Shown here one piece after another: positions 14,721 through 33,526 of a DNA stretch of 64,000 nucleotides. Location of the stretch: positions 34,352 through 98,351 of the forward strand of contig JBDRNT010000069.1 of the NCBI GenBank assembly GCA_043810925.1, in the 5' to 3' direction. The notes beneath the pieces are model-generated. The model was not told where the DNA came from. It searched no databases and saw nothing but the letters and a program-made list of their open reading frames with translations. The position numbers and the translations under genes were made by a program. The stretch comes from Candidatus Eiseniibacteriota bacterium (GTDB lineage Bacteria > Arandabacterota > Arandabacteria > Arandabacterales > Arandabacteraceae). How positions within the stretch are numbered: the stretch's first letter is position 1; each line of letters opens with the position of its first letter.

Positions 14721-14790
14721 ATGAACCCCAACAGAAAAATCCGTGCTCTATTGTAATAATAAAGCACGGATCATGTCAACTGCTGGTGGA

Positions 14791-15540
14791 CTAATGTAAG
14801 ATCTCGCTCAGTCCTATGAAGAACGAGATATCGGACTCATTGCTGAGCCTCATCTCTCCACTCACTCTCCCCGTACCACCCAGGTGGCAATTCACACCCA
14901 GGATCAACTCTGGGACTGCGTCTTCTCTGAAGTCGTTGCCGTCCTTCCATACTTCCCCGCTTTCAGACGTGCCCCTCCGGTCCACGTGACCGAAGATATG
15001 GGTCAGGCCGAAGCCGATGTATGGTGAGAAATACTCATGTCGCCAGTTGGCTATGACACTCAGCTGAATTTCGTTATACTTGTACCGTGTGTAGTATTCC
15101 TCGGTGTACGTGTCCCCCCAGCCATCGGGTCTCTCGATCTTGACGGTGTTGTCGGAGGTGAAAGAGAGCATCTGAAGATCCACGTATGCCGCAATCTCCG
15201 GTTTGCTGACTTCCCATATGCCGCACCGCGCTCCACCACCCCACGTCATGTTTTGGGCCGGTGTCTCGAAGTCGGGGCCATCCGCTGCCACCCTGAGATC
15301 GCTGGCGCCAAGCCTCGCATACAGATCCAGGTTGTCCATGGCGCCCCAGATGAGCTTACCGACGAAGCGCCGTGACTTCACAAGATCTTCGTCTACCATC
15401 TTGACCTGCTCCTCCGCCTCCAGCGTGACTCCGTAGTTGTCCTTGCCTACAGTAACTGCCGGATTGCCGGCCCCCCCTGCCCAGACGAGCGCGGGAATCA
15501 ACAACGTCGCCGCCAATCCAGTTGCGATGAGTCGCCTCAT
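14791..15540 (-). CDS. Secreted hypothetical protein with a signal peptide, last gene of the pil/Big-protein operon.
   Basis: Signal peptide MRRLIATGLAATLLIPALVWA. No recognisable domain. Separated from the upstream gene by 22 nt. Confidence 0.5.
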   Translation of the reverse strand: MRRLIATGLAATLLIPALVWAGGAGNPAVTVGKDNYGVTLEAEEQVKMVDEDLVKSRRFVGKLIWGAMDNLDLYARLGASDLRVAADGPDFETPAQNMTWGGGARCGIWEVSKPEIAAYVDLQMLSFTSDNTVKIERPDGWGDTYTEEYYTRYKYNEIQLSVIANWRHEYFSPYIGFGLTHIFGHVDRRGTSESGEVWKDGNDFREDAVPELILGVNCHLGGTGRVSGEMRLSNESDISFFIGLSEILH

Positions 15541-15562
15541 GATCGTTTCACCCTCCTGCTTC

Positions 15563-18500
15563 TTACGGGGTTATCGTTATATCTATTGCCGCTTCTACCG
15601 TCGTCATAAAGAGTTTCGCCTTAACCGTAGTTGTTCCTTCTTCGGTACCCGGCGGAATTGTCACCGTCGTGTATGCCGAACCGCTCTCATCTGTCGTACC
15701 GAAGTACGGCGAAACAGAGCCTGCACCCTCGATCGAGAAGCCGATATAGGCCTTGTCGACGGGCAGGAGATTGTAGTGATCCCAGCAGACGACCTGGATG
15801 TTGACCACGCCTCCTGCCGCCCCGCTGAGTGAGCTCGGGAACGCTTCGATGCTGAGCGCGGCATCGACGATTGGCAGTGTGATACCGTACGATGCTGAAC
15901 TCTGAGTCTCTCCCCCCCAGGTACTTGCTATGATCGTCCCATACTCGAAGATCGACTCGGTCCCATATGTGAGACACGCCCGGGTGATGCCCTTTATGGG
16001 ATCACCACTCAACTCGGCGCACGGATATGAGCTACCGGTATATGTCTCCGGATTTATGAACCCGAGATCCGATCTGTCGAGCGTGAAGTAGACGGCCGTC
16101 CCGTTCTCAACCGGGTTATTGAACTGGTCGCGCACAATGGCGGACACACCCAGCGTGTAGGTTCCATCACCGTTTATGACCACTTCACCGACTTGAAGTA
16201 GGATGGAATCCGGATCGCCGGCAGAAATGCCGATCTTCGTGGCTGCGGCCGCATAATCGCCGGATGTTATCGTCATCAGGACAGTACCCGGCTTCGTACC
16301 GCTATTAACGGTGATTGAAGCCACGCCGCCGAAGGTCGGCTTTATAATCGGCCCGTAGCCGTCGGCGGGATCATTGAGGTACTCCCCGCCACCCGGTCCG
16401 GCCTGGATGGTGAAGCTCACATCCGTACCATCCGCAACAGGATTGCTGTGGGAATCGTAGACATGTGCAAGTACAGTAACCTGCGATTCGTCCCACGTAC
16501 CCGCAACCGCAATCCAGGCGGTATCGGGATCGGCGACGATGGCACCGGACGAACCCGAGAGCAGTCTGATGCCGACATCGTGAGTTGCCTTTTCACACAT
16601 GGCCGTTACGGTCGCCGTGGCGCTGCCACCGGTCGGGATGAACTTCGCCGTGGCGATGCCGCCGACCGTGAGACCGATCGGCGTTACTATACCGTTACCC
16701 GCCGACACGGTGAATGAAACGACAGTGCCGTCCGCGACACGGTTACCGTATTCATCAGTCACTTCAGCAACAATCGTCGCCGTCGAGCTGCCGTCACCGG
16801 GCAGGCTGTCCGGCAGTGCGTATGCAGAGACAAACGAGGCCACGTCTGGTGCGAACACCACCTGTGTGGCGGCACCGGCTGCCCCTGAGCTGGCCCTTAC
16901 GGTGACATTGCTGTTGGCTATGCCCGTGGGTACCAGCTCCACGTCCGCAATACCCGAACCGGTCGCGCTCGAAGGCGTAATCGTACCTTCGGTAGTAGAG
17001 AATGTAACAGGCGTGCCGTCGGGAACGGGCGAACCATCGGTGAACGAGACGTAGGCCGTTATCAAGCTGATATTGGCAGGATCGGCACTGATCGCCATAG
17101 GCGTGGCCTTAAGCACTATCACCGGTGTCTCAAAGCCGACGACGATTGCATCCTGGTAGAGACCTCTGTATGAGGCGGCGACCGTCGCACTACCCACGGT
17201 GCTCGCACTCGTAAGCTCGGCTTCAGCCTTTCCATAAGAATTTGTAATAGCGCTTCCCGCGATCATACCGGCGCTCGTTGTAAGCTGTATTGAGGCCCCT
17301 TCGACGGGATTTCCATCCTGCGTCACAAGCGTCGTCCGTACGGTCTGCGATGAGATTCCGTCTGCGACCATCTTGGGCATCTGTGCCTTGAGCGTTAGAT
17401 TAAGACCCACGAACGTCACCTGCACAGTGTCGGCAAGCGCATCGCCGAATGATGCGATCACAGTCGCAGTTGCAGGATAGTCCGCGCTGGTCAGAAGCAC
17501 ATCCGCGTTACCGTAGAAATCGGTAACGGCGCTGCCGGTTATCACACCATCGCTCGTAGCGAAGTCAACGCTGACGCCGCTTACCGGATTGTTGCCCTCA
17601 CCCAGGAGGGTCGCGGTAACGTACTGAGACGACAGGCCGTCGGCGGGCATTCTCGTCAATTCGGCCGTCACATTTATAGCGAGACCTCCAAAGGTCACAT
17701 AGGCGGTCCCCGTCATCAACCCGTATGATGCGACCACAGTTGCGACACCGGGTGATGTAGGGCTGTACAGATAGACTGCGGCGACGCCATTCGCGTTGGT
17801 GTAGGCCATCGCGTCTATCGCACCAAGAGTGGTGGTAAAGGTAACCGGGACGGTTGCCAGCGGAACGCCTGACGTCGTCTCTCCGACCCATGCCGCCACA
17901 TATGAAACAGATGTACCATCCGCGGGCAGATCGTCAGGATCGGCCACCACAAGAACTGATACACCCCTCATGTCGACATCGACCACTTCAGCATAGGGTT
18001 CCACATCGCCGTAGGTGATCCACGCCGTCACGGTCGCAACGACATCGTTTACGCTCGGCAGGCTTACAAGAACCGCACTCGCCTGGCCGGTCGAATCGGT
18101 CCGGCTGACCGCATCCGTGATCACTCCCTTGGCAGGATCGACGTCCCACGTTATCAAGGCACCCTTAACAGGGGCGCCGCTTTGATTCACAAGATCGATC
18201 GAGAGCATCGAATACGACATTCCATCCGCAAGGATGCTCATAGGAGATGCCTCAAGCGCGCCCGCCCCGACCTGGAGGAAAACCTCTTTGGGTACGAGGC
18301 TGCGGCCCGTGGCCCTTATGGTCTCCTGCACGGTGCCGTAGGGTGCGGTGTATACCACCCTCACGATACCGTTCTCGTCCGTTATGCCCGGCGACTCAAT
18401 TGCGCCGTACGTGACCTCAAAGACCAGATCGTGTCCCACTACCGGGTCATTATCAAGATCTACGACCCGGACTTCTACATCGGCAGTTCCACCCGGATCC

Positions 18501-18685
18501 ACACGCACCGGTACTACTTCAAGGTACTGTATCCTGTACTGGGGCGGCTCGGTCTCGATGTAAGGACTGACGGAACCTTCCTTCTCCGCGCACTGAAGGC
18601 ATGCGAAGGTCACAAACAGAATGCCCAGAGCGAGAGCCCTTCTCTTTCTTCGACTCATAATCAGATACCCCCAATCGCCTTTCAA
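15563..18685 (-). CDS. Large surface/secreted protein built from tandem bacterial Ig-like (Big_1/invasin-like) domains, 1,040 aa.
   Basis: N-terminal signal or lipoprotein-like peptide. At least eight roughly 90-aa repeats with a recurring ...ATV.ASYG.....V.F... pattern. Its start overlaps the pilQ stop by 4 nt. Confidence 0.65.
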   Translation of the reverse strand: MKGDWGYLIMSRRKRRALALGILFVTFACLQCAEKEGSVSPYIETEPPQYRIQYLEVVPVRVDPGGTADVEVRVVDLDNDPVVGHDLVFEVTYGAIESPGITDENGIVRVVYTAPYGTVQETIRATGRSLVPKEVFLQVGAGALEASPMSILADGMSYSMLSIDLVNQSGAPVKGALITWDVDPAKGVITDAVSRTDSTGQASAVLVSLPSVNDVVATVTAWITYGDVEPYAEVVDVDMRGVSVLVVADPDDLPADGTSVSYVAAWVGETTSGVPLATVPVTFTTTLGAIDAMAYTNANGVAAVYLYSPTSPGVATVVASYGLMTGTAYVTFGGLAINVTAELTRMPADGLSSQYVTATLLGEGNNPVSGVSVDFATSDGVITGSAVTDFYGNADVLLTSADYPATATVIASFGDALADTVQVTFVGLNLTLKAQMPKMVADGISSQTVRTTLVTQDGNPVEGASIQLTTSAGMIAGSAITNSYGKAEAELTSASTVGSATVAASYRGLYQDAIVVGFETPVIVLKATPMAISADPANISLITAYVSFTDGSPVPDGTPVTFSTTEGTITPSSATGSGIADVELVPTGIANSNVTVRASSGAAGAATQVVFAPDVASFVSAYALPDSLPGDGSSTATIVAEVTDEYGNRVADGTVVSFTVSAGNGIVTPIGLTVGGIATAKFIPTGGSATATVTAMCEKATHDVGIRLLSGSSGAIVADPDTAWIAVAGTWDESQVTVLAHVYDSHSNPVADGTDVSFTIQAGPGGGEYLNDPADGYGPIIKPTFGGVASITVNSGTKPGTVLMTITSGDYAAAATKIGISAGDPDSILLQVGEVVINGDGTYTLGVSAIVRDQFNNPVENGTAVYFTLDRSDLGFINPETYTGSSYPCAELSGDPIKGITRACLTYGTESIFEYGTIIASTWGGETQSSASYGITLPIVDAALSIEAFPSSLSGAAGGVVNIQVVCWDHYNLLPVDKAYIGFSIEGAGSVSPYFGTTDESGSAYTTVTIPPGTEEGTTTVKAKLFMTTVEAAIDITITP
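16100..17900 (-). repeat. Tandem in-frame array of ~285-nt repeats coding for Ig-like domains (within the CDS).
   Basis: Recurrent peptide modules (ATVVASYGLMTGTAYVTFGGL / ATVIASFGDALADTVQVTFVGL / ATVAASYRGLYQDAIVVGFET) inside the 1,040-aa ORF. Boundaries are approximate. Confidence 0.5.
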
Positions 18686-19989
18686 TCGACTATCGTAGGA
18701 GTCACGAAAATCAACAGCTCTCTGCTTTCGTCCACCCTACTCTTCGAGCCAAATGCCCGTCCTATTAGCGGAATGTCGCGCAAAACCGGGACACCGGTTG
18801 AGTAAACACTTTCATTCGTTCTGATAAGACCACCGATGACCGCGGTCTCGCCATCCTGAACCATGACCCGCGTGTCCGCTTCTGCGGTGACGATAATCAC
18901 ACCGCCCTGTACGGTGGCCTGTGCTGACAGATCGCTGACCTCGGGGTGAAGATCCATCGTTATCTCACCGGTCCGGCTGTTCACATGAGGAGTCACCCTC
19001 ATCTGGATACCGACCGTGGTCAGCTGTGTTATGGGGTTGCCGGCTTCATCCGTGACAATCAAGGGGATCTTCTTGCCGACTATTATCGTGGCTTCTCTGT
19101 TGTTCAGCGTGGTGATCCTTGGATTTGAGATTATGTTGGCTTTGTTGTCCCGTTCAAGCGCCTTGATAGTAGCCTCGAAACTGCCGGCGGGACCGACGAT
19201 CTTGCCAATATCAAGTGAGGCCTCGGGTTGTGACACCGTAGCACCCTGACTCTGGGTCGGATCCACCGTGATCTCGCCCGTGGCGTCCATCTTTGCGGCA
19301 TGTTCGCCCTGCACACCGGGGACCACCACGTTGTCTGCAGACCACTGGATCCCGAATTCTCTCGACAGACGAGCGTCGACATCAACCAGTCTCGCTACGA
19401 TCTCAACCTGCGGAGTCTGGGTATCGAGTTGGGTCACCATATCTGCGATATCAGCGACCCGTGGTTCGATATCAGTAACGATCACTGAATTCGTCCTGTC
19501 GTCGACCTCGATGACACCCCGTCTGCTGAGCATTCCTCTCAGGGGTTCGAGGAGTTCGTCAGCCTTAGCGAAGCTGACATCCACGACCTTCGTGGTCACT
19601 GGTTCGAGATCCTCACGCTTTCTCGTGGCCTCGTGCAACTTGATCTCTTCGTTGAGGAACTGGTCCCAGAGTCCAACCCGGATAATGCCGTCTTCTTCTC
19701 TTGCCGCGTACCCATTGGCCTTAAGAACAGTGTCCAATGCCTGTCTCCACGGCACGTTTTCGAGATGAACAGTGACCGGACCCTCCACTTCGGGACTCGC
19801 GATTATGTTCTTATCCGTGTAGATCGCGAAGCTCCGAAGAACCGTATTTATGTCCGCATCCTGCACATCCATGGAAATCTGCTCTCCACCGGGAATCGCA
19901 CTAATGCAGATCCCGCTGAAGAGAACCGCTACAGCCGTCACAAGAACAACCTGACACAACCTGGAGAGTCTGTTTCTTAGCATCACCAT
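18682..19989 (-). CDS. pilQ: Type IV pilus secretin PilQ, short form lacking the AMIN/N-terminal extension domains.
   Basis: Secretin C-domain motifs (ATIIVGKKIPLIVTDEAGNP..., VPVLRDIPLIGRAFGS...ELLIFVTPTIV). Last gene of pilMNOPQ. Confidence 0.85.
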   Translation of the reverse strand: MVMLRNRLSRLCQVVLVTAVAVLFSGICISAIPGGEQISMDVQDADINTVLRSFAIYTDKNIIASPEVEGPVTVHLENVPWRQALDTVLKANGYAAREEDGIIRVGLWDQFLNEEIKLHEATRKREDLEPVTTKVVDVSFAKADELLEPLRGMLSRRGVIEVDDRTNSVIVTDIEPRVADIADMVTQLDTQTPQVEIVARLVDVDARLSREFGIQWSADNVVVPGVQGEHAAKMDATGEITVDPTQSQGATVSQPEASLDIGKIVGPAGSFEATIKALERDNKANIISNPRITTLNNREATIIVGKKIPLIVTDEAGNPITQLTTVGIQMRVTPHVNSRTGEITMDLHPEVSDLSAQATVQGGVIIVTAEADTRVMVQDGETAVIGGLIRTNESVYSTGVPVLRDIPLIGRAFGSKSRVDESRELLIFVTPTIVD

Positions 19990-20690
19990 TCACCCTCTTC
20001 TGCAAGTTCCAAAGTTACCGATTTCGTCAAATCGAAAATCGTTATGGAAAAAGTAATTGAAGCCGGGGTTACGGATACTACGCTCCCATTGATCACCCTG
20101 TCACCGACCCTCAGTGCGTAGCTTCTTCCTCCGTCATCCTCCAGCAGGGCTATAATCCCGGATTCACCCCACACAGATCCCACCATCGTGGCTCCGGACA
20201 CGTCCAGCATCCTACTGCCTCTCTCCATGCCCGTCGCAACCAGTGAGTAGAAGGGGTCTCTCAGGAAGGCGGCTGTGTAAGCTGTGGCCGTCTCCCTGCT
20301 GAGGTCGATGTTGTCGGCGACATCAGGCAAAGCAGCGGCGGTATCAGGCAGGGCCTCCACCGCCGGTTCGGACTCAGGGGCGGTCTGGGCCACTTCATCC
20401 ACTTCTCCAGCCGCAGCCTCAGTCGGTGCCATCGTGTTCATGATGGTGGAACCGGAGAAGATATCACCCTTTGACGGTGCCTTGTCATGCGAACTGCTGT
20501 ATTCGGCCGGCTCCCGGACTGCGCTGTCGCCAGCCCCCAGAAGGAACTCCGTCACCTGGTTAACAGCAAAACTCATGATCTTCTGATGTCCACCAAAAAC
20601 AACGAACACGATGATGCCAACCGCCGCCAGCGGAATCGCTAGGCGCCCGCCTCTGAAAAACTTGATAAACTCTGGCACTTTTGCTGGCAT
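19983..20690 (-). CDS. pilP: Type IV pilus assembly protein PilP-like.
   Basis: Position between pilO and pilQ. N-terminal transmembrane anchor, Ala/Pro-rich linker and a C-terminal beta-domain. Confidence 0.6.
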   Translation of the reverse strand: MPAKVPEFIKFFRGGRLAIPLAAVGIIVFVVFGGHQKIMSFAVNQVTEFLLGAGDSAVREPAEYSSSHDKAPSKGDIFSGSTIMNTMAPTEAAAGEVDEVAQTAPESEPAVEALPDTAAALPDVADNIDLSRETATAYTAAFLRDPFYSLVATGMERGSRMLDVSGATMVGSVWGESGIIALLEDDGGRSYALRVGDRVINGSVVSVTPASITFSITIFDLTKSVTLELAEEGEW

Positions 20691-20708: not shown

Positions 20709-21326
20709 CTATCTCGTACCCTCTGTCGTCGGAGCCTCTGTTCCCGCCGCAGTTCCCGCCTGGTTTACGTTGTATGTGTATGCTGAAACCGTTGCAGAAG
20801 CCTCAACGGTCTCGGGTTCCTCGCCTGCTGCAATCTGTATGATGCTTATCTCCGAAAGCCCTACAAGCCTCTCCATGTTGCACATATTGTCGAAGAATCT
20901 CCCGACCTCGTGGTATCCGCCTGTCACGCTGACGCTGATGGGATACCTTGTGTAGAGATCATACAGTTCCGGAGCCTCGGGTTCGAAAAGAACAAACTCG
21001 ACGCCGGCCTTCATACCTGCCGTCGTCACGTCGCTCAGAAGCATGCTCATCTCGCTGGCTAACGGCAGGAGTCCCCGGAGTACTTCCCACTTGTGTTCGA
21101 GCATCTTCAGCTCTTCCTTGATCTTGGGAAGTGTCCGTACGGCTGACTCAAGGACGCGGAGCTCGCCGGTAACGACCTGCAGTTCCTGCCTTAGCTCGTG
21201 CACCTCTTTCGCAGATCGCTTTTGCGAGAAGGGCAGATAGGACGTGAAGAATATGAGCCAAACCAGGGCGATGACAACGATAAAGCCGACCAAGCCTTTG
21301 TGGATATACGGTTCGCGTAGGTTCAT
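20709..21326 (-). CDS. pilO: Type IV pilus assembly protein PilO.
   Basis: Single transmembrane helix, coiled coil and a PilO-like C-domain. Context pilN-pilO-pilP. Confidence 0.7.
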   Translation of the reverse strand: MNLREPYIHKGLVGFIVVIALVWLIFFTSYLPFSQKRSAKEVHELRQELQVVTGELRVLESAVRTLPKIKEELKMLEHKWEVLRGLLPLASEMSMLLSDVTTAGMKAGVEFVLFEPEAPELYDLYTRYPISVSVTGGYHEVGRFFDNMCNMERLVGLSEISIIQIAAGEEPETVEASATVSAYTYNVNQAGTAAGTEAPTTEGTR

Positions 21327-21892
21327 GAGCCTTCCCCAGCCTTCTTTTGAGTTTTGACGTGATAACCAAGATCAAAGCCAAGCACCGGGGTACCCTGCAT
21401 GTCTTCCTTCCTTATTACCCGCAGAAAGACCGAATCGGTGTGTGTCTTGGCCTCAAGTGCATCCATGAACCGGGAGATCGCCAGGTTCGAGAATGCCCAT
21501 CCTCTGACCTGAGCCGCACCCCCGTTTTCCTGGAATCTCTGCAGCCAGACATACTCAGGCACGCTTCGCGCCAGCTCGTCAAGAAGATGAACCCTCAAAC
21601 GACGATTCTGATCCAGGGTCTCAATCACGCCGATGCGCTGGGTGATCTCTCTTCTCTTGACGGTCAGCGCATCAACCAGAGCGGCCTGCTCTCGATACTT
21701 CTCTTGCTCGGCGACCGCTTCTCCGATTTCCGACTTCAGTGAGGAGATTTCATACGAGCGGAATATGTGTAAGCCGGCGCCTACTATGAGCACCAGTGCC
21801 GCTCCTATCAGCGTCCATACGAATATCTTACCCCAGGTTACAGCTGCTCCGGAGGGCTTCTCCTCTCTCGGCAGGAGGTTTATTCTCACCAT
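21323..21892 (-). CDS. pilN: Type IV pilus assembly protein PilN.
   Basis: Hallmark INLLPRE N-terminus, then a single transmembrane helix and a coiled coil. Confidence 0.8.
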   Translation of the reverse strand: MVRINLLPREEKPSGAAVTWGKIFVWTLIGAALVLIVGAGLHIFRSYEISSLKSEIGEAVAEQEKYREQAALVDALTVKRREITQRIGVIETLDQNRRLRVHLLDELARSVPEYVWLQRFQENGGAAQVRGWAFSNLAISRFMDALEAKTHTDSVFLRVIRKEDMQGTPVLGFDLGYHVKTQKKAGEGS

Positions 21893-21895: not shown

Positions 21896-22942
21896 TTAGC
21901 TCCCTTGTCTTGTGGCAAGTCCTATCGCCACCATCAACGACGGCCCAATGGCGATCGGATCCGCTTCCAGGATCTCCTCTTGACACTCCACATTTCTGAG
22001 GGGATTTGCCAGATCGACCTCGACCGACAGTTTCTCACCGAGGAATGATCGCAACCCTGCTATACGGGCGCCCCCTCCACTCAGAAAGATCTTGTCGACG
22101 GCCTCGGCCTCCCCCGAAGATCTCAGGTAGGAAAAAGACCTCTCAACAGCGATACTCAGGTCTTCGCCTACAGTTTCGATTGCCTTGAGTACCCCTTCGG
22201 GCTTTGCACCGGGAACACCCTCCAGTGCCGCCCTGGCCTCTTCGGAGGTTATGCCCAACCTTCGCTGCATACCTTCAACAAAGGTCTCCCCTCCGAACTG
22301 GATATCCCTGTTGAAAATGGGGATCCCGTTGCGCACGATCCCGATGTTGGTCGCGCTCAGGCCTATATCTATCAGGGCGTAAACCTTGTCCTGCTCATAT
22401 TCGTAGTTGAGTTCGTAGGCGTTCTGCACGGCGAACGTATCAATGTCTATGATCGCCGGGATCAGGTCAGCATCCCTCAGGAGCTCGACGTGAGAGAGGA
22501 CCTTGTCCTTCTTGGCCGCTACAAGGAGAACCTCCATCGTGTTGGCCGCCAGCCCGCGCCTCAGTATCTCAAAGTCTACCGACAGTTCCTCTTGCTCAAA
22601 CGGCACGTATTGCTCAGCTTCCAGAGTCATCACTTCGCGTGCGGTTTCATCATCCATCTCGTCCATCTTGATCTTCTTTATGATCACGGAGCGCCCGCAG
22701 ATTGCGCTGACGACTTCCTTGTTGGTGATTTCCTTTTCTTCGAACACTTCCTTGATCGCAGTGACCACGGCATCGCGGTCCATGGGCTCACCATCGACGA
22801 TGGCCCCGGGCAGAAGCTTCTTCACGCCGACCTTGGTTATCTCACTGCCCGCCGCCGTCTGTTTCATCTCTACTACCTTGATGGCGTAACTTCCAACATC
22901 CAGTCCGATAGTGCTCTTCTGCTTCTTGCTAATTAGCGGCAT
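21896..22942 (-). CDS. pilM: Type IV pilus assembly protein PilM (actin-like ATPase fold).
   Basis: PilM-like sequence (IGLDVGSYAIKVVE..., DIGLSATNIGIV, GGGARIAGL). Confidence 0.85.
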   Translation of the reverse strand: MPLISKKQKSTIGLDVGSYAIKVVEMKQTAAGSEITKVGVKKLLPGAIVDGEPMDRDAVVTAIKEVFEEKEITNKEVVSAICGRSVIIKKIKMDEMDDETAREVMTLEAEQYVPFEQEELSVDFEILRRGLAANTMEVLLVAAKKDKVLSHVELLRDADLIPAIIDIDTFAVQNAYELNYEYEQDKVYALIDIGLSATNIGIVRNGIPIFNRDIQFGGETFVEGMQRRLGITSEEARAALEGVPGAKPEGVLKAIETVGEDLSIAVERSFSYLRSSGEAEAVDKIFLSGGGARIAGLRSFLGEKLSVEVDLANPLRNVECQEEILEADPIAIGPSLMVAIGLATRQGS

Positions 22943-23151: not shown

Positions 23152-24474
23152 CTAGCGCTCATTCTGACCTCTATCTGAGATGTCTCCCGATTGCCTACTT
23201 GGTCCAGCCTTTCTTTCTATCGGCATCGATATTCCGGCACTGAAGAGAAATGAATCTCCCCTCTTCTCGACCCTGATCCGGTGACTGTCGGAAGGCAGTG
23301 ACTTCAGGAGCAGCAGGCCTGCTTCCCTGCGGAGACGGTTATCCGCTGCAAATTCTCGCAACGAATCACCAATCTCAACAATCGGCCTGGTGGGGCTTTT
23401 CTCGCTTATCGTTACCCCCGCGAGATCTGTTTCGTGGTCTCGCCAGAGAGATGTGCTTATCTCGATCCCGTCGGGACTCTCCTCAAGGCATCCCTGGATC
23501 AGCATCTCAAGACCCATCTCGAACACCTTGCCCACGGTTTTGACTTTAGGAATGCCCGCGCAGAGATTCGTACGTAGCCTCGGGCTGTCAGCTATGTTCT
23601 TTCTTCTCAAGACCGATTCGACCATTCCGTTGAGATCCGCCAGTTCGGTCCGGCTGCTTGACCCACCTTTCGAAACGGCGAAGACCATCATCAGATCGCA
23701 TGTGTGCCTTATTGCACGGGCGAATTCCGCCAGTTGGCCCTCATCCACGCCATCCCGGCCTCCAATATCCTGGATCTCGTCTGCCCGCACCGTAATACCC
23801 GAGATCAGATCGTATGAGTCCAGCACCCCCCTTAGGTAGCTCTCTCGCTCAATCCCGGCCTTGTCATCGGCTGCATGCGCGCGGCTCGACCTCCGGACAT
23901 CATCCAGTTCGGTGAAAACGACGATTATCGCGTCAACACCCGATTCTCCCAGGAGACAGGAAATGCTCGCACCGATGGTCCGTGACATTCCATCAAGGGT
24001 CCTGATTTTTATAGAATTCCGGGCCGAGTTCTGCTTAGTCCTGAAACTCGTTCGGATGAGTGATTCAAGGTCGCCGGCCTCACTGAAGAGGCTGCTCAAC
24101 CTGACCGGGCCGGCCCCAACACCGACGGACGTACCAAGAAGGAGACGTGCCGATGAGTTCATAAGTCCCACCTCACCACCCCTGTCGACCACCATTATCC
24201 CGCTTGTGATCGACTCGATCACAGTTTCACTCAACAGCGCGTAGCGTGCGGCTTTCTTTTCCGCGGTCAAGTACAGCTCCCCAAGCTCGTTACCCTCCCT
24301 GGAGAGCTTTGATACCAGCTGTTTGAAGGTACTGACCAGACCCTCAATGTCTTTCACGTCGCCGTAGCTTGATGAGCTCTGACTCAATTGATGATCACCC
24401 CTTTGTCGATGCGTGGTCCGAGAAAGCAGGCCTCCTAAGAACGCCTGCAATGACGCAGCCAGACCCTTCCTCAT
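23152..24474 (-). CDS. PAS-domain protein with a degenerate histidine-kinase-like C-terminus (pseudo-kinase?).
   Basis: PAS-like segment (LLSETVIESITSGIMVVDRGGEVGLMNSSARLLLG). The C-terminal region resembles the HATPase_c fold but lacks clear H-, G1- and G2-boxes. The start is set at the Met giving an ATGA overlap with the upstream gene; the ORF extends to 24609. Confidence 0.4.
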   Translation of the reverse strand: MRKGLAASLQAFLGGLLSRTTHRQRGDHQLSQSSSSYGDVKDIEGLVSTFKQLVSKLSREGNELGELYLTAEKKAARYALLSETVIESITSGIMVVDRGGEVGLMNSSARLLLGTSVGVGAGPVRLSSLFSEAGDLESLIRTSFRTKQNSARNSIKIRTLDGMSRTIGASISCLLGESGVDAIIVVFTELDDVRRSSRAHAADDKAGIERESYLRGVLDSYDLISGITVRADEIQDIGGRDGVDEGQLAEFARAIRHTCDLMMVFAVSKGGSSSRTELADLNGMVESVLRRKNIADSPRLRTNLCAGIPKVKTVGKVFEMGLEMLIQGCLEESPDGIEISTSLWRDHETDLAGVTISEKSPTRPIVEIGDSLREFAADNRLRREAGLLLLKSLPSDSHRIRVEKRGDSFLFSAGISMPIERKAGPSRQSGDISDRGQNER

Positions 24475-25514
24475 TCCTGATTTTCCCATGGAAATACATA
24501 ATGGACACTGCCGTTTGCCTGGTGGTAGTGCAGCCAGGCTCCTGCGACCGGGGGAACACAGTCGATGAAACCCTCGGCCTCGAGTACCGGAATCGAGTCG
24601 GGATAGCACCCCGTTTTGTCGAAGTACTGGCCGAGTTTTCGTTCGAGGTACCGTCTTGTTCTCCCGGCATCCTGTCTGATCTCGGTTGTGTTGAGCACCG
24701 TTTGCGAGGCTGAATCGAACAGATACGTCCCGCCAAACGGGCCGTCCGGAACCCTGTCCATCAGTCCTCTGTCGACGAGCTCCTGAAGATCAGACGGGAA
24801 CCGTCCGGAACTTTCGCGAAACCGGCCCACCAGTCCCTCGAGCGCTTTTCTCATCTGTTCAAGATGAATGCTCTTGATTGAGTAAAGGGCGTTCTCTTTG
24901 ATTACACTGTTGCTGCTGGAGCGGTAGATCTCTTCCCAGAGTGTAAGCGATATGTCGATGCTCCCCGCTCTTCTGTAGGCGAATGCCGAGAAACGCCTGG
25001 CTATGTCCGGTGAATCATCGAAACGTGAGGCCATTCTGAAATAGTGGCCGGCTTTTGCGTCGTCATCCGCTGAGGTGAAGTAGAGGAATCCCAGATCGAA
25101 GGGCAGTTGCCACTGACCGGGATTGCTGACCATGCCTTTCTTAAGAAGCCGGATCCCCGCGGCCGGTTGGCCCATGTCCTGCGCCAGTACAAACGCCCCG
25201 AACCTGTATGCGCCGACGAAGTTCGGATCGAGGTCGGTTATGGTCGAGAAGATATGCTCGGCCAGCGGATAGTATTTGTCACTCCTGCGGTGCTCGCCAT
25301 AGTACTGAATCCCCTTCAGCCAGAGCAGATCGGATGCCAGTGTCCGGTAACCAAGGCTTGCGATTTGAAGAAATCGTCCCGACGGGAAGTATGTGAGCTC
25401 CTCTTCGATGTCGCCCGCGTAACGCTCGTAATTGAGGGCCACGCTCAGCCCGCAGATCGCAACCACGATCCCGATCAACGCAATCATAAGCACCAGCTTC
25501 CTGACCCTCGTCAC
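24471..25514 (-). CDS. Membrane-anchored TPR-like helical-repeat protein (possible accessory of the adjacent ABC transporter).
   Basis: N-terminal transmembrane helix and helical-repeat content. Overlaps both neighbouring genes by 4 nt. Confidence 0.45.
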   Translation of the reverse strand: MTRVRKLVLMIALIGIVVAICGLSVALNYERYAGDIEEELTYFPSGRFLQIASLGYRTLASDLLWLKGIQYYGEHRRSDKYYPLAEHIFSTITDLDPNFVGAYRFGAFVLAQDMGQPAAGIRLLKKGMVSNPGQWQLPFDLGFLYFTSADDDAKAGHYFRMASRFDDSPDIARRFSAFAYRRAGSIDISLTLWEEIYRSSSNSVIKENALYSIKSIHLEQMRKALEGLVGRFRESSGRFPSDLQELVDRGLMDRVPDGPFGGTYLFDSASQTVLNTTEIRQDAGRTRRYLERKLGQYFDKTGCYPDSIPVLEAEGFIDCVPPVAGAWLHYHQANGSVHYVFPWENQE

Positions 25515-26290
25515 TTGAACTCTCTCCTCTCGAAGACCAGGACCGCGATGATCAGGAAGGCCATCGTGTAAAGCAAAGCATATGAGCTGGCGAATGCCAC
25601 ATAGTGGAAGTCGATCGGTACGTCGTGTATCACCTTACTGCGCACGTTAAGATACTCAAGATTGGGCAGGGTGTAGTAGATCGCCCCAACAACCACTTTG
25701 ACTGAGCCCGACCCGAAGCGTGATGCGAGCTGTTTTAAGTCTGCGCTTGTGTGACCGATCAGGTACAGCAGCAAGGTGAATATGGCCCCCAGGATGGGGG
25801 AACTCAGGGTGGACATCATTACCGAGAGCGCCGTCAGAAGCAAGAGCTCCATCCATGTAAGGAATACCGCGGTCAGGATATGCGGGTGGAAGCTCCCGGC
25901 TGCGACCCAGCTTACGACAACGAGCAGGACGGTCATCATGGCCATCAGAAGACTCACCGTCGCTGTGAGACCGGCGAACTTGCCTATGATGAATTGCCAT
26001 CTGCTGACCGGCTTGGCAATCACCGTATAGATCGTCCGCCTCTCAATTTCCTTGTACACGATGCCTGTCCCGATGAGAACCGCGATCAGGAAGCTCAAGA
26101 CCGAGATGGCGGCAAGACCCATGTCCTGAGTTATGCGTTCCTGCTCCCCCAGTGACAGTGGTGCGATGATGAAACTGCTGGCCAAGATTGCGGCTCCAAA
26201 GATGACAACAGCAACAAACAGACGGTCCCGGACACCTTCTCTGAAGGTGTTACTTGCAAGAGCGACTATTTTCGGAATCACCGTGCTCAT
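25511..26290 (-). CDS. ABC-2 type transporter permease (PilI/GldF-like).
   Basis: Six predicted transmembrane segments and ABC-2 permease features. Overlaps the ATPase gene by 4 nt. Confidence 0.7.
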   Translation of the reverse strand: MSTVIPKIVALASNTFREGVRDRLFVAVVIFGAAILASSFIIAPLSLGEQERITQDMGLAAISVLSFLIAVLIGTGIVYKEIERRTIYTVIAKPVSRWQFIIGKFAGLTATVSLLMAMMTVLLVVVSWVAAGSFHPHILTAVFLTWMELLLLTALSVMMSTLSSPILGAIFTLLLYLIGHTSADLKQLASRFGSGSVKVVVGAIYYTLPNLEYLNVRSKVIHDVPIDFHYVAFASSYALLYTMAFLIIAVLVFERREFK

Positions 26291-27300
26291 CCCGTTGTTT
26301 GCAGAGCTTTCTGAGTTCGTGATTTCTCCTCCTCCGGTTGGCAGACAGGAGATTGAACCTGGCTCATGAAGTAATCCTCAAGCGTCTGTCTATGAGGGAT
26401 CACTGCAGATATCGTCGCGCCGGAGGCGAGCAGTACGCCGACGGCCCGGCTCACATCTGCATCCGGTGTGAGTGAGATCACGGTCTTGTCTCCGTGTTTC
26501 GCAACCTCTCCCAACCCGAGTACAGCAGCTTTCTCCATCTCGAGGCCATCCAGCTGAATCTCCACGCACCTTGTGCTTCCAAGACGCACTTCCGAGATAG
26601 TGGCGATTCTCAATATCTTGCCCTGGGACAATATGCCCACACGATCACAGATGATCTCTACGTCATGCAGGATGTGTGAGCTGAAGAAGACGGTCTTTCC
26701 CTGCATTTTCTGCTGAAGGATCAGGTCGCGGATCTCCCTCCTGCCGACAGGATCAAGCCCGGAAAGCGGCTCATCGAGAATTATGATATCAGGGTCGTTG
26801 ATCAGCGCCTGGGCCAGTCCTATCCGCTGCAGCATTCCCTTTGAGAACTTGGAAAGGGTCGTGTCCCTGGACTCCCAGAGCCCGGTTGCATGAAGCAACT
26901 CCTCCGCCCGGCGCCGCAGCGGTTTCTTCTTCATGCCGCAGACGCCGCCATAGAACTCCAGCAGTTCGACCGCGCTCAGGTGCTGATAGAAGTAAGGTTG
27001 TTCCGGAAGAAACCCGATTCTGCCTTTGATCCCGGCCGAGGTCGACGGTTTGCCGAAGCATGTTACGCTCCCGGCAGAAGCCCGCAGCAGGCCGAGCGCC
27101 AGCTTTACGGTCGTTGTCTTGCCCGCACCATTGGGTCCCAGGTAGCCGAAGACCTCACCCTGCTCTACCTCGAAGCTGACGGGCCCCAGTGTATACATGT
27201 GGCGCCCGATCAGACTTGACCGGAAGACCTTTGAAACGCTGTCGAACTTGAGCACGGACACGTGGATTTCCCCCAGAATTGCTGTTTGAATCCTATGCAT
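26287..27300 (-). CDS. ABC transporter ATP-binding protein (PilH/GldA-like).
   Basis: Walker A GPNGAGKTT, signature LSKGMLQRIGLA and Walker B IIILDEP. The start is set at MHRIQTAIL (27300); the ORF extends to 27414. Confidence 0.8.
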   Translation of the reverse strand: MHRIQTAILGEIHVSVLKFDSVSKVFRSSLIGRHMYTLGPVSFEVEQGEVFGYLGPNGAGKTTTVKLALGLLRASAGSVTCFGKPSTSAGIKGRIGFLPEQPYFYQHLSAVELLEFYGGVCGMKKKPLRRRAEELLHATGLWESRDTTLSKFSKGMLQRIGLAQALINDPDIIILDEPLSGLDPVGRREIRDLILQQKMQGKTVFFSSHILHDVEIICDRVGILSQGKILRIATISEVRLGSTRCVEIQLDGLEMEKAAVLGLGEVAKHGDKTVISLTPDADVSRAVGVLLASGATISAVIPHRQTLEDYFMSQVQSPVCQPEEEKSRTQKALQTTG

Positions 27301-27364
27301 ATGTTCGGCAGGTCTGGTAGATTCCTTTAGAAATTGCGGGGTACCCGGCCGGCTCCCGGGTACA

Positions 27365-27398
27365 AATAAAAAAAAGGTGGCAGCCGAAGCTGCCACCC
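27365..27398 (-). terminator. Rho-independent terminator after pilA.
   Basis: On the minus strand: GGTGGCAGC-TTCG-GCTGCCACC, a perfect 9-bp stem, followed by T8. It lies 23 nt after the pilA stop. Confidence 0.8.
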
Positions 27399-27420
27399 TT
27401 TGTCCGAAGTCCACATCCAG

Positions 27421-27843
27421 CTACATACCGGTCGTCAGTTGGAGCGTGAGCATTGCCGACTTGCCGTAACCTTTGATAACGTAGTCTGTAGTATTAGCCG
27501 GATTGGCTCCGAACACACCCTGCGAAGCGGGATCAGCATCAAACGTTGCCACTGTCGCAGCGCCCGTGAACGGATTGTCCGGATATGCAGCGTCCGGACA
27601 AAGATCCTCGATCGTATCCCCGCCGGGAGTCGTCGAGATCGCAGCGTCAGGATAAACACCGTCGCTCTGAACGGCGAAATCCTCAAACGCCAGCTGGAAA
27701 GTGTGCATGTTTGACTTGACGCTGGCCTCTTTCGCCCTATCTTGCATGCTTATGAAGTTGGGAATCGCTATCGCCGCCAGAATACCGATAATGACGACAA
27801 CGATCATCAGCTCAATCAGAGTAAAACCCTTCTGGTTGAACAT
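27421..27843 (-). CDS. pilA: Type IVa major pilin.
   Basis: Class III signal MFNQKGFTLIELMIVVVIIGILAAIAIPNF; 140 aa; GGAGGTG ribosome-binding site. Confidence 0.9.
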   Translation of the reverse strand: MFNQKGFTLIELMIVVVIIGILAAIAIPNFISMQDRAKEASVKSNMHTFQLAFEDFAVQSDGVYPDAAISTTPGGDTIEDLCPDAAYPDNPFTGAATVATFDADPASQGVFGANPANTTDYVIKGYGKSAMLTLQLTTGM

Positions 27844-27904
27844 TGTCTCTCACCTCCTTCGCTCAGGCTCAACGAGCCTTAATTGGACTCAACCTCGTCT
27901 ATAT

Positions 27905-27920
27905 AGCAATGTCCGTACCA
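27905..27920 (-). promoter_or_regulatory. Sigma54 (-24/-12) promoter for pilA.
   Basis: The minus strand reads cTGGTACggacaTTGCTatat. GG and GC sit at the canonical 10-nt spacing, with one mismatch to the TGGCAC-N5-TTGCW consensus. It lies about 65 nt upstream of the pilA ATG, and a PilR-type sigma54 activator is encoded next door. Confidence 0.6.
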
Positions 27921-28030
27921 GAAACCGAGAGTCGGCAAGTTTCTCGAAGCCCTTGAAGTTACAGCACTTCGAGCCACGGTCCCCGGCAACAAGGACACAC
28001 CACATCCCATCCGTATTGCATATCGCAACG

Positions 28031-29428
28031 CTACGAGTTGTCTTTTGCACTCTCAACCTGCTCACCTATGGTCTTGTCACAGTCGTACCGCTGGAGTTTG
28101 CGGTACAGAGTTGACGCGTTTATGCCCAAAATGTCCGCCGCCCTTTTCTTCCGCCAGCCCGTTTCCTCCAGTATCTTGAGGAGGTACTCCTTTTCGAGTT
28201 CTTCAAGCGTGAGCGTGCTGGTGGCAACTACCGAACCCCTTTTCCCGCTGGTCACGTATCTCAGCTTCTCCGGAATGTCCGTCGGAGTTATGGCATTGCC
28301 GTCCTGCAAGATCAACGCTCTCTCAAGAACGTTTTCAAGCTCGCGCACGTTGCCGGGCCAGTCGTACCTGAGAAGAACCTCAAAGGCATCCGGCGACACC
28401 GTCTTCATGGTCCTATCGGTCGCCTCGCAATAGGTATTGAGGAAATGTTCCACAAGCAGAGGGATATCGTCTTTTCTTTCCCGCAAAGGAGGAATGTGTA
28501 TCGGTATCACGTTAAGCCTGTAGAAAAGGTCCGCTCTGAACTTGCCCGTCTCGACATCCTGCTCGAGATCGGAGTTGGTCGCCGCTATAAGCCGGACATC
28601 AACCTTGATCGGTTTGATCCCGCCGACGGGTATGATCTCGCGCTCCTGCAAAACGCGGAGCAGCTTCACCTGGATGGCGGGTGAGGTCTCTCCCACCTCG
28701 TCGAGGAAGAAGGTCCCCCCTTTGGCCACTGCAAACAGACCTTCCTTGTCGCGCACGGCGCCAGTGAACGATCCCCTTACGTGGCCGAAGAGCTCGCTCT
28801 CCAGCAATGTCTCCGGCAGTGCGCCGCAGTTTATGGAGACGAATTGGCCGTCTACCCTGTTGCTCTTATAGTGGATTTCCCGTGCTATCAGCTCTTTTCC
28901 GGTTCCGCTTTCTCCTGAGATCAGAATGGTCGAATCGCTTACCGCCACCTTGTCTACAAGACCCAGGACCTGCCTAATCTTCTCACTCTTGCCTATGATC
29001 GGTCTCTGCGTGAGACTCTTCTTCAGCTCCTGCTTGAGATACCGGTTTTCCTTCTTGAGCGACCGCACCTCTATGGCCTTTTTCACCATCTGTTTGATTT
29101 CTTCGTTTCTGGCCTGCTTGAGGAGATAGGCGAACGCCCCCTTGTTCACGGCTTCGATTGCGGTCTCCATCGAAGCGTGCCCCGTCATGATGATCACGGG
29201 CACCTGGGGATCGATTTCCTTGATGGCCGTAAGGACTTCAATGCCGTTCATGCCGGGCATCTTCACGTCTGTAATCACTACGTGGAAGCTTTCCTCCTTG
29301 AATCTCTCAATCGCATCCTTGCCGCATTCACACGCCGCAACCTCGTAGCGTTCTTTCCCCAAGAGGATCTTGAGAAATTCTCTCATTCCCTCTTCGTCTT
29401 CAACCACGAGTACTCTTTCATGCCCCAT
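28031..29428 (-). CDS. pilR: Sigma54-dependent response regulator (NtrC family), PilR by context.
   Basis: REC domain (VVEDEEGMRE...DVKMPGMNG), AAA+ sigma54 activator motifs (GESGTGKE, GAFTGA-like ...GSFTGAV..., ESELFGH) and a C-terminal Fis-type helix-turn-helix. Confidence 0.8.
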   Translation of the reverse strand: MGHERVLVVEDEEGMREFLKILLGKERYEVAACECGKDAIERFKEESFHVVITDVKMPGMNGIEVLTAIKEIDPQVPVIIMTGHASMETAIEAVNKGAFAYLLKQARNEEIKQMVKKAIEVRSLKKENRYLKQELKKSLTQRPIIGKSEKIRQVLGLVDKVAVSDSTILISGESGTGKELIAREIHYKSNRVDGQFVSINCGALPETLLESELFGHVRGSFTGAVRDKEGLFAVAKGGTFFLDEVGETSPAIQVKLLRVLQEREIIPVGGIKPIKVDVRLIAATNSDLEQDVETGKFRADLFYRLNVIPIHIPPLRERKDDIPLLVEHFLNTYCEATDRTMKTVSPDAFEVLLRYDWPGNVRELENVLERALILQDGNAITPTDIPEKLRYVTSGKRGSVVATSTLTLEELEKEYLLKILEETGWRKKRAADILGINASTLYRKLQRYDCDKTIGEQVESAKDNS

Positions 29429-29434
29429 ACGAGA

Positions 29435-31159: not shown

Positions 31160-31170
31160 TCTCCCGCGCC

Positions 31171-32391: not shown

Positions 32392-32400
32392 CCGCCCCCT

Positions 32401-33507: not shown

Positions 33508-33526
33508 CTCATCTTCCTCCGGTCAC

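Follow-up and report, generated by a model that had tools for sequence, protein, structure and literature searches.

A probable multi-Ig lipoprotein and a predicted outer-membrane barrel encoded at the end of a type IVa pilus operon in Eisenbacteria

Introduction

Why does a type IVa pilus (T4aP) operon continue beyond its secretin gene into a giant protein of tandem Ig-like repeats and a small secreted protein? This question is raised by a stretch of 64,000 nucleotides from Candidatus Eiseniibacteriota (contig JBDRNT010000069.1), referred to here as the window. A preliminary description of the locus had offered two readings for the additional genes, namely a pilus-associated adhesin or a partner substituting for the N-terminal domains that are missing from an unusually short PilQ. 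Here, we analyzed the operon, its proteins and their distribution in other lineages, and weighed these readings against further alternatives.

Operon layout and gene junctions

The three open reading frames at the centre of the question are all located on the minus strand, at 18682–19989 (435 aa), 15563–18685 (1040 aa from a TTG) and 14791–15540 (249 aa). The gene order on this strand is pilMNO, a PilP-like gene, pilQ, the gene of the repeat protein (Big) and the gene of the 249-aa protein (OMP249), with the following features:

21896–22942, minus strand: pilM (PF11104 PilM_2, E 3.6e-67)
21323–21892, minus strand: pilN (PF05137 PilN, E 2.8e-15)
20709–21326, minus strand: pilO (PF04350 PilO, E 1.7e-28)
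19983–20690, minus strand: PilP-like gene, 235 aa, with an N-terminal membrane segment, an acidic/Ala-rich linker and a C-terminal domain
18682–19989, minus strand: pilQ, core-only secretin (N0/STN, N1 and secretin domains, without AMIN; TIGR02515 and Pfam)
15563–18658, minus strand: Big gene, 1,031 aa, probable lipoprotein (the mechanical open reading frame reaches TTG 18685)
15611–18514, minus strand: ten Ig-like (Big_1) domains, aa 49–1016 (repeat HMM)
14791–15540, minus strand: OMP249, 249 aa, signal peptide and predicted 10-stranded outer-membrane beta-barrel of a rare unannotated family
14738–14772, minus strand: conserved hairpin of 15 bp with a T-run behind it, which likely terminates transcription of pil-Big-OMP
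14750–14779, minus strand: promoter-like TTGACA-N18-TACAAT upstream of rsmD, overlapping the hairpin

The remaining T4aP genes (pilB/T/C/S/R/A) are also encoded in the window, and its pilus system is an ordinary T4aP set of pilB/T/C/A and pilMNOPQ. The PilP-like protein has no match in Pfam or NCBIfam; its residues ~114–233 match the gene that takes the place of pilP in pilMNOPQ loci of Nitrospirota (tblastn, E 1e-7 to 1e-10).

The stop codon of pilQ had been thought to overlap the start of the Big gene, with translational coupling as a consequence. This overlap amounts to 4 nt and exists only with the first in-frame TTG (18685). The Shine-Dalgarno-like motif GGGGGTAT, followed by an ATG, is conserved in all close relatives, as is the N-terminus of the protein (M..RKRR..hydrophobic..C), and the NCBI annotation gives a protein of 1031 aa (P0028). 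On these grounds, the likely start is the ATG at 18658, located 23 nt past the pilQ stop, and coupling by overlap is an inaccurate description of this junction. In a deep Eisenbacteria lineage, a 4-nt pilQ/Big overlap is given by gene callers (L026, L037). The distance of 22 nt between the Big stop and the OMP249 start was exact as first reported, and the genes are co-oriented throughout.

A terminator scan found no terminator-like sites at the pilQ/Big and Big/OMP junctions. The pilQ/Big junction contains a single promoter-like match, which is weak (9/12) and cannot serve the Big gene because its -10 hexamer lies over the start codon; an internal promoter was rejected. For the hairpin and T-run behind OMP249, RNAalifold on 7 loci showed 15 pairs and compensatory changes at 3 of these, and the rsmD promoter-like site agrees with the consensus at 11/12 positions and its TTGACA is invariant in the 7 loci. 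Altogether, the tight co-oriented spacing, a terminator-like hairpin only after OMP249 and the conserved arrangement support the view of a pil operon extended by two genes.

A core-only PilQ

The 435-aa secretin is indeed a PilQ without an AMIN domain. It scores 312.5 bits on TIGR02515 (cut-off 284.35), with residues 35–434 on model positions 1–427 of 428, and the Pfam matches PF00263 (E 1.6e-45), PF03958 (E 1.2e-13) and PF21305/PF07660 together cover the secretin C-domain and the N0 (STN) and N1 (Secretin_N) domains. No AMIN domain was found with Pfam, a domain which is common in PilQ but does not define the family. In line with this, alignments with solved PilQs cover only a C-terminal part of these proteins, ~420 residues long (475–892 of 901 in M. 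xanthus, 289–713 of 731 in P. aeruginosa). As the curated PilQ model has 428 positions and the HofQ models have 412–419, a PilQ-type secretin of 435 aa is not unusual in itself. The core-only HofQ/ComE secretins are alike in length (~410–450 aa) and in their N0-N1-secretin architecture. However, the window's protein scores 201 bits against a HofQ cut-off of 554, yet above the cut-off for TIGR02515, and differs from them by its place in a full pilMNOPQ operon, behind pilM, pilN, pilO and the PilP-like gene and with pilB/T/C/A near.

Anatomy of the Big protein

The description of a giant protein of tandem Ig-like repeats was borne out. Pfam domain annotation, which had been proposed as a check, matched both expected families strongly, with seven stretches of Big_1 (E 3e-62) and with Invasin_D3 (E 7e-48), and an HMM built from the protein's own repeats resolved ten tandem copies over aa 49–1016 of 1031. 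The N-terminus comprises a signal peptide (aa 1–22) and a disordered tether (~aa 23–37) inside a conserved linker (aa 26–48). The cysteines C23, C880 and C895 are invariant, and the one following the signal peptide is kept in 23 orthologues. From the signal peptide and this cysteine, we infer that Big is a probable lipoprotein. In distant homologues, the lipoboxes are canonical (..GC, ..SC), and behind them come an acidic patch and the conserved motif [GSA]-x-[IVLA]-x-P-hydrophobic. In the window's lineage, position -1 to the invariant cysteine is Q, M or T, which makes the lipobox non-canonical. The lipoprotein export signal (LES) of Bacteroidetes reads K-(D/E)2 or Q-A-(D/E)2 (PMC5080379); C-A-E-K-E-G and similar acidic patches of Big are LES-like without matching it exactly. 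Homologues of the type IX secretion system (T9SS) proteins PorU and PorV are encoded in the window, and the envelope is therefore Bacteroidota-like in at least this respect.

The number of Ig-like domains is variable. Orthologue lengths cluster at ~932, ~1025 and ~1120 aa, corresponding to classes of 9, 10 and 11 domains, and the fifth repeat (aa 425–498) is missing from about two-thirds of the orthologues. Homologues reach 1,801 aa, and domain numbers span 9 to about 19. Surface stalks typically vary in length in this way. The per-domain identity points the other way: Ig7–Ig9 are among the best conserved domains (58–66%), whereas the membrane-proximal Ig1–2 reach 39–44%, which is not the usual pattern of a fast-evolving adhesin tip and counts against reading the protein as an adhesin fibre.

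The AlphaFold2 (AF2) model (pLDDT 83.4, pTM 0.34) consists of all-beta beads with a signal helix at residues 3–24 and low confidence at 23–37. These scores agree with domains that are well folded but not confidently placed relative to one another. A phmmer search against PDB sequences gave no matches, and Foldseek with the full model returned generic multi-Ig or MG arrays only, at uninformative TM-scores below 0.22. As the latter include the MG-domain arrays of alpha-2-macroglobulin and complement, and as Pfam placed sub-threshold MG4 and bMG3 matches on Big, one could think of a lipid-anchored periplasmic protease trap of the alpha-2-macroglobulin type; bacterial alpha-2-macroglobulins are lipoproteins as well. 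We consider this highly improbable and rejected the identity. MG4 scores 21.8 against a required 24.7 bits and bMG3 18.7 against 34.9, the TM-scores of 0.11–0.13 reflect a generic beta-sandwich fold, and the strong matches are to Big_1 and Invasin_D3 instead. Moreover, as the model is entirely beta, Big has neither a helical thioester (TED) domain nor a bait region.

OMP249 represents a rare barrel family

For the 249-aa protein, the gene, its coordinates and its signal peptide stood, while its supposed nature as a soluble secreted protein did not: it is predicted to be a 10-stranded outer-membrane barrel. The score on Pfam OMP_b-brl (PF13505) is 20.4 bits versus a gathering threshold of 28.7, and sub-threshold matches to this model occur in 5/8 family members (best E 1.4e-5); the barrel fold is predicted despite these scores. 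Comparison of the barrel profile with the PDB yielded chance-level VDAC/lectin matches only, and no PorP/SprF match was found even at E 5. The family is without Pfam or NCBIfam annotation and rare: an exhaustive HMM search of 1.84 billion representatives recovered 168 clusters (50% identity). Word-index protein searches with the barrel remained almost wholly within Eisenbacteria, and the wider family was seen by the exhaustive search only. A metagenome locus scan with a closer barrel alignment gave only 5 contigs, which are too short for context (1.6–4.2 kb).

The association of barrel and Big protein was found from both directions. The OMP249-family HMM matches the gene directly 3' of Big in five further lineages (L025, 4e-24; L027, 2e-14; L026, 7e-14; L036 and L041, both 2e-35). 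Conversely, a search starting from the barrel found a Big_1 protein directly upstream in L039, L040 and L041, and a multi-Big_1 protein directly precedes the barrel in 7/7 lineages with readable flanking DNA.

Conservation and linkage to secretin genes

Ten close Eisenbacteria genomes and one deep lineage share the pilMNOPQ-Big-OMP arrangement, and in the deep lineage identity is low for Big (~29%) and OMP (22–25%). The synteny check suggested earlier thus extends the pilQ-Big-OMP order across two deeply diverged Eisenbacteria lineages. Among the close relatives, the whole neighbourhood is syntenic, including rsmD-coaD-pta-glcD-obg, and conservation there is alone no proof of a functional link. 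Big (44–53% identity) and OMP249 (36–55%) also diverge faster in these genomes than most pil genes, with PilQ at 65–78%.

Outside this arrangement, Big homologues occur in differently organized secretin/ATPase clusters of four other lineages (L027, L028, L041 and the P0066 contig), which makes a link of the extra genes to the pilus machinery likely, as the preliminary description had considered. A barrel or barrel candidate is present in 3/4 of these clusters; in L028, the secretin-linked Big homologue has no detectable barrel partner. Other loci have no pil or secretin genes in their vicinity: Big is accompanied by a clear barrel-family member in L025 and L036, and by only a marginal barrel candidate in L029 and L035. 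Given these four lineages, the link to pili is facultative.

One possible explanation would be that the pair is an unrelated passenger, that is, an independent envelope or adhesin operon situated between pilQ and housekeeping genes without a functional tie to the pilus. The fully syntenic neighbourhood of close relatives, the faster divergence of both proteins and the pil-free loci would all suit this idea, but we find it doubtful. The adjacency of pilQ and the pair survives the deep Eisenbacteria split, where aroK comes after the pair, while in Nitrospirota loci it directly follows pilQ. The secretin/ATPase linkage recurs in four other arrangements, in one of which the pair precedes the secretin, and the tight spacing and the hairpin found only after OMP249 also speak against a passenger.

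The same comparison bears on the proposed replacement of PilQ domains. In a broader form, Big and the barrel would assist PilQ structurally or during its assembly, pilotin-like or as part of a ring or scaffold, taking the place of AMIN, TsaP or a pilotin. Pilotins (PilF/PilW/Tgl), which act on the secretin or are encoded beside it, are outer-membrane lipoproteins, as Big probably is. In contrast to pilotins, TsaP and AMIN, Big is of much greater size and of variable length, and it occurs without secretins as well. A pilotin identity was rejected: TPR, LysM and AMIN features are absent from Big, and its model is all-beta. Big, with a barrel or a marginal candidate, also occurs with no pil or secretin gene close by, and it adjoins longer secretins elsewhere (636 and 751 aa), one with a weak AMIN match. 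The constant partner of Big is the small barrel and not the secretin, and 9 to about 19 domains are a poor fit to a part of fixed periplasmic dimensions. Hence, a role of Big as a stand-in for missing PilQ N-terminal domains is not supported, and an accessory role at the secretin in general seems unlikely.

Alternatively, Big could be cargo of a type IV filament machine, exported through the PilQ-type secretin and then kept on the surface, either through its lipid or through the barrel. The T2SS lipoprotein PulA (pullulanase) offers an analogue, and a thin Ig rod could fit through a secretin channel. This model gains from the four differently organized clusters of secretin and T2SSE-type ATPase, from L028, where Big has the secretin on one side and three small proteins with hydrophobic N-terminal segments on the other, and from L027, where proteins with prepilin-like N-termini come after the barrel. 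However, the model has no need of the barrel, which is Big's invariable partner, and the window's own system is an ordinary T4aP set. The Big-plus-small-gene loci stand alone as well, even though a secretin may be encoded elsewhere in those genomes. Altogether, we regard the cargo model as quite unlikely.

A surface-fibre module co-expressed with the pilus

The best explanation, to which we assign a probability of roughly 0.5, is that the last two genes of the T4aP operon encode a self-contained surface-fibre module, consisting of an Ig-rod lipoprotein and its cognate barrel, which is co-expressed with the pilus. Big would pass the inner membrane via Sec, become lipidated and then be delivered to the outer membrane. 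There, a short conserved tether after the lipidated cysteine would lead into the ten Ig-like domains, which would form a flexible rod with an estimated length of roughly 35–40 nm. The partner barrel may hold the membrane-proximal tether or help to expose it, so that the rod projects as an adhesin-like fibre. Since the pair is probably transcribed together with pilMNOPQ, production of the fibre would go along with that of the pilus machine, and the fibre might contribute to attachment, aggregation or twitching. Judged from sequence, the option of a pilus-associated adhesin is a viable one. Against the model, a barrel of ten strands would be a narrow conduit for a polypeptide.

A bolder version, which we put forward only tentatively, is that Big_1 lipoproteins and OMP249-family barrels constitute an undescribed two-component system for surface lipoprotein fibres, in which the barrel exports or docks the tether and which has become wired to T4P secretins in several uncultured lineages. 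In its extreme form, the rod would exit through PilQ and be captured by the barrel.

With the small barrel always beside a multi-Ig lipoprotein, a concrete candidate for a dedicated partner is at hand, and a family without Pfam or NCBIfam annotation receives a context-based label. The view that a PilQ of 435 aa requires something in place of its N-terminal domains is corrected. As the recurrent genetic linkage with pilus secretins suggests, pili may be accompanied by a long adhesin-like fibre in some uncultured phyla; if true, this would change how attachment and motility genes in metagenomes are interpreted.

Comparison with known systems

Our literature search on Eisenbacteria pili, on pilMNOPQ loci with Ig-like proteins and on split inverse autotransporters found no published description of the pilQ-Big-barrel arrangement. 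Its components, however, recall several known systems. Inverse autotransporters of the intimin/invasin type (type Ve secretion) share the tandem Big_1/Invasin_D3 rod and its combination with a small outer-membrane barrel, which in the case of Big would hold the base of the rod. A fused protein of this type was rejected for Big, which has no N-terminal 12-stranded barrel but a signal peptide and cysteine, with Ig repeats starting at aa 49; a periplasmic LysM domain and a C-terminal lectin-like tip were not found with Pfam either, the C-terminus being Ig-like and all-beta.

In the LigA and LigB proteins of Leptospira, which are regarded as surface adhesins, roughly a dozen bacterial Ig-like domains in tandem come after an N-terminal lipobox. 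Big resembles them in its Ig-like array and its probable lipidation site, although Lig proteins consist of Big_2 domains, whereas Big matches Big_1 and has no Big_2 match in Pfam. To our knowledge, neither a dedicated partner barrel nor a pilus linkage is known for Lig proteins. In Flavobacterium SprB/SprF and other T9SS type-B cargo, the gene of a giant repetitive adhesin is directly followed by that of a small cognate PorP/SprF-like barrel required for display. The order of rod and barrel genes is the same here, and parts of a T9SS are likewise encoded in this genome. Nevertheless, assignment to this class was rejected, as Big has no Por_Secre_tail or CHU_C match and carries a probable lipoprotein signal instead, and OMP249 has no PorP/SprF match. 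Altogether, the module formed by Big and its barrel appears as a variation on known adhesin-plus-barrel themes, with a function that is predicted from its sequence and genomic context.

Organization of the pilus operon and its extension

From pilM to OMP249, seven co-oriented and tightly packed genes lie on the minus strand (ORF list), with the coordinates and sizes that a preliminary description had assigned to pilQ and the two genes after it. These two encode Big, a protein of ten tandem Big_1 Ig-like domains, and OMP249, a predicted 10-stranded outer-membrane barrel of 249 aa from an unannotated family:

22942-21896, minus strand: PilM gene (Pfam)
21892-21323, minus strand: PilN gene (Pfam)
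21326-20709, minus strand: PilO gene (Pfam)
20690-19983, minus strand: PilP-like gene, 235 aa (alignment to a Nitrospirota gene in the PilP position)
19989-18682, minus strand: pilQ secretin gene (Pfam and NCBIfam)
18685-15563, minus strand: Big gene, mechanical ORF (Pfam Big_1/Invasin_D3)
15540-14791, minus strand: OMP249 gene (ORF list)

Upstream of pilM (23152-35230, minus strand) we find pilB, pilT and pilC, together with genes for a PilS-like kinase, a sigma-54 PilR-like regulator, a 140-aa pilin, an ABC ATPase and an ABC-2 permease. The pil genes of the window form a complete type IVa pilus supercluster. Its order resembles that of the Myxococcus pil locus, in which a pilGHI-like ABC transporter is also encoded. 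Two unannotated proteins of 347 and 485 aa, encoded after the ABC-2 permease gene, are kept in relatives. For the 235-aa protein in the PilP position, Pfam and NCBIfam models gave no family match; it was treated as PilP-like on the strength of an alignment of its C-terminal ~120 residues with the Nitrospirota gene. This protein (19983-20690, minus strand) carries no lipobox but an N-terminal membrane segment, and a long linker rich in acidic residues, Ala and Pro precedes its conserved C-terminal domain.

PilQ comprises N0/STN, Secretin_N and Secretin domains, and no AMIN domain was found with Pfam. It scores 312.5 bits against the NCBIfam PilQ model TIGR02515 (curated cut-off 284.35 bits), covering all 428 positions, and matches only the C-terminal ~420 residues of the solved PilQs of M. 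xanthus, P. aeruginosa, V. cholerae and Neisseria. A core-only PilQ of this kind is in itself unremarkable, given that the curated models of PilQ and HofQ span 412-428 positions.

The stop codon of pilQ had been described as overlapping the start of Big, but this 4-nt overlap holds only from the first in-frame TTG (18685). The junction contains TGA (18684-18682), GGGGG (18672-18668) and an ATG at 18658. As close relatives share both a GGGGGTAT..ATG motif at the start of Big and the N-terminus that follows (M..RKRR, a hydrophobic stretch, then Cys), and as Big is publicly annotated at 1,031 aa (protein record P0028), a 23-nt spacer is most likely. In a deeper Eisenbacteria lineage, gene callers do place a 4-nt overlap here.

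A terminator scan revealed no terminator-like site at the pilQ/Big or Big/OMP249 junction. The spacer between OMP249 and rsmD (14721-14793, minus strand) is strongly conserved in seven loci (the window and its equivalents in L001, L003, L005, L006, L007 and L009, loci of relatives), with an invariant TTGACA and a 15-bp hairpin showing compensatory changes in three pairs. The hairpin has TACAAT in its loop and 3' arm and is followed by a T-run. The spacer looks like the terminator of the pil-Big-OMP249 unit overlapping a promoter for rsmD, a superposition through which expression of rsmD-coaD might be tied to the end of the pil operon.

Anatomy of Big and its barrel partner

A repeat HMM built from Big itself delimits ten tandem units of ~75-95 aa at residues 49-1016 of 1,031, which Pfam assigns to Big_1 (E 3e-62) and Invasin_D3 (E 7e-48). 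The full-length AlphaFold2 model (pLDDT 83.4, pTM 0.34) agrees with well-folded domains that are not placed with confidence relative to one another. It places a signal-peptide helix at residues 3-24 and a low-confidence tether at residues 23-37, the rest being beta-sandwich domains only; no helical, lectin-like or barrel domain appears in the model. The missing helical thioester domain contradicts a periplasmic alpha-2-macroglobulin-like protein, a highly improbable identity suggested solely by sub-threshold MG matches and generic Foldseek matches.

Cys23, Cys880 and Cys895 are invariant among 23 aligned Big orthologues. Distant homologues carry textbook lipoboxes (LVGC, WIGC, WSGC, FSC, LSC); following the Cys, they share an acidic patch as well as the motif [GSA]-x-[IVLA]-x-P-hydrophobic, which is conserved. 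In the lineage of the window the Cys is preceded by Q, M or T, unusual residues at this position, so lipidation is probable, short of proven. The acidic patch is similar, without an exact match, to the lipoprotein export signal that directs Bacteroidetes lipoproteins to the cell surface (PMC5080379).

Orthologues fall into length classes of ~932, ~1,025 and ~1,120 aa, the fifth repeat being absent in about two-thirds of them, and the longest homologues reach 1,801 aa. In two relatives the gene is broken into two ORFs (L002, 2003-5365, 164 and 931 aa; L027, 6475-12098, 521 and 1,365 aa), which could reflect a frameshift, assembly error in repeats or real decay.

Four strands of the predicted OMP249 barrel are 22-25 residues long, and its best structural match is OmpT. 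When 1.84 billion representative proteins were searched exhaustively by HMM, only 168 clusters of this family were recovered; among the matches listed, obvious fragments aside, nearly all are 205-313 aa long.

Conservation of the Big-barrel pair

The annotation of a Candidatus Eisenbacteria MAG includes proteins identical to Big and OMP249. A PilQ genome scan yielded ten Eisenbacteria-type loci at 65-78% identity, and the order pilM-N-O-P-Q-Big-OMP249-rsmD-coaD-pta-glcD-obg is kept in every one of sufficient length. Because the whole neighbourhood is syntenic, conservation among close relatives is not by itself proof of a functional link. The next-nearest PilQs, in Nitrospirota loci (~36% identity), are ~750 aa long and directly followed by a shikimate kinase-like gene (an aroK/aroB fusion by size); Big and barrel genes are absent from these loci.

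We examined the gene neighbourhoods of Big homologues sharing ~26-32% identity, together with those of three barrel-family members sampled from the barrel side (L039, L040, L041).

Gene contexts of Big homologues in relatives' loci and contigs
L026, L037, L040: pilins-pilMNOP-pilQ (447-449 aa)-Big (~1,097 aa)-250 aa-aroK-rsmD-coaD
L027: Big-248 aa in a cluster with T2SSE, T2SSF, sigma-54 regulators and a T2SSG-like gene, then proteins with prepilin-like N-termini
Contig of protein record P0066: PilM/N-PilO-228 aa-secretin (636 aa, weak AMIN)-T2SSE-Big (1,546 aa)-245 aa
L028: T2SSE-x-x-secretin (608 aa)-Big (1,116 aa)
L025, L036: Big, then a 255-296-aa gene; no nearby pil genes
L029, L035: Big, then a 232-246-aa gene; no nearby pil genes
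L039: Big_1 protein directly upstream of the barrel (1.6-kb contig)
L041: Big (cut by contig end)-OMP263-182 aa-secretin (751 aa)-T2SSE

L040 is labelled Candidatus Eisenbacteria, so the first three loci represent a deep lineage of that phylum. There, aroK lies between the barrel gene and rsmD, a position without aroK in the lineage of the window. As a shikimate kinase-like gene directly follows pilQ in the Nitrospirota loci, the pair seems to have been inserted between pilQ and aroK. The Eisenbacteria barrel HMM recognises the gene after Big in L025 (4e-24), L027 (2e-14), L026 (7e-14) and L036 (2e-35), and only marginally in L029 and L035. In all seven lineages with readable DNA around a clear barrel-family member (7/7), a multi-Big_1 protein lies directly upstream of that member, usually at 11-23 nt (56-132 nt in three loci).

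Of the nine lineages with long enough contigs, six have Big within or beside type IV filament genes, in at least four different arrangements, and in five of these six it is accompanied by a barrel-family member or, on the P0066 contig, by a candidate small gene. The constant unit is a lipoprotein rod plus a barrel, the secretin being a frequent but dispensable neighbour. This recurrence in different arrangements, as well as the terminator position, speaks against Big and OMP249 being a functionally unrelated passenger operon, which we consider unlikely.

A possible surface-fibre module

We give a probability of about 0.5 to Big and the barrel forming a surface-fibre module. Big would leave the cytoplasm by Sec, receive its lipid and travel to the outer membrane, where the cognate barrel would dock or help expose its conserved tether, leaving the Ig rod to extend outward like an adhesin fibre; since it would be co-transcribed with pilMNOPQ, the fibre would be produced in step with the pilus machine. 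What is shown is confined to the genes; the location of Big, the role of the barrel and adhesion are inferred. The module would gain in interest if the barrel were a dedicated lipoprotein-display partner, or if export depended on PilQ.

The preliminary description had proposed a pilus-associated adhesin or a substitute for the missing AMIN and N-terminal domains of PilQ. The pilus link is likely, but the substitution is not: the pair also occurs beside long secretins, one with a weak AMIN match, and loci with no nearby pil genes contain either the pair or a Big homologue accompanied by a marginal barrel candidate. Moreover, rod length varies about two-fold, and at ~3.6 nm per domain, as in invasin, a ten-domain rod would measure ~36 nm, exceeding the typical periplasm width. 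That Big acts as a secretin accessory or pilotin-like protein is unlikely. Export of Big as lipoprotein cargo through the secretin by the pilus machinery, followed by retention at the surface in a manner likened to T2SS pullulanase, would explain its linkage to diverse secretin/ATPase clusters, but leaves the obligatory barrel unexplained and seems to us rather improbable.

Other genes in the window

The window also encodes T9SS parts (58613-63661, minus strand), in which a PorV-family barrel (E 1e-13) comes after a 1,342-aa PorU-like Peptidase_C25 protein (E 3e-73); a secretion system of the Bacteroidota type is thus present in this Eisenbacteria genome. At 5038-6828 (plus strand) and 55322-58600 (minus strand) lie genes for two Peptidase_M6 (immune inhibitor A-like) proteins, the larger also bearing FG-GAP repeats and adjoining the T9SS genes. 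At 47809-52944 (minus strand), a 566-aa Omp85/POTRA protein directly downstream of a 1,144-aa protein without family match possibly forms a TamA/TamB-like pair with it.

Comparison with known systems

Our literature search found no published description of the pilQ-Big-barrel arrangement. The Leptospira Lig lipoproteins resemble Big in architecture, but are built from Big_2 instead of Big_1 domains. The same gene logic is seen in T9SS type-B adhesins with a downstream PorP/SprF barrel; unlike these pairs, however, Big lacks a T9SS sorting domain and OMP249 falls outside the PorP family. Altogether, the Big-barrel pair is a variation on known adhesin-plus-barrel themes that centres on an unannotated barrel family of uncultured bacteria.
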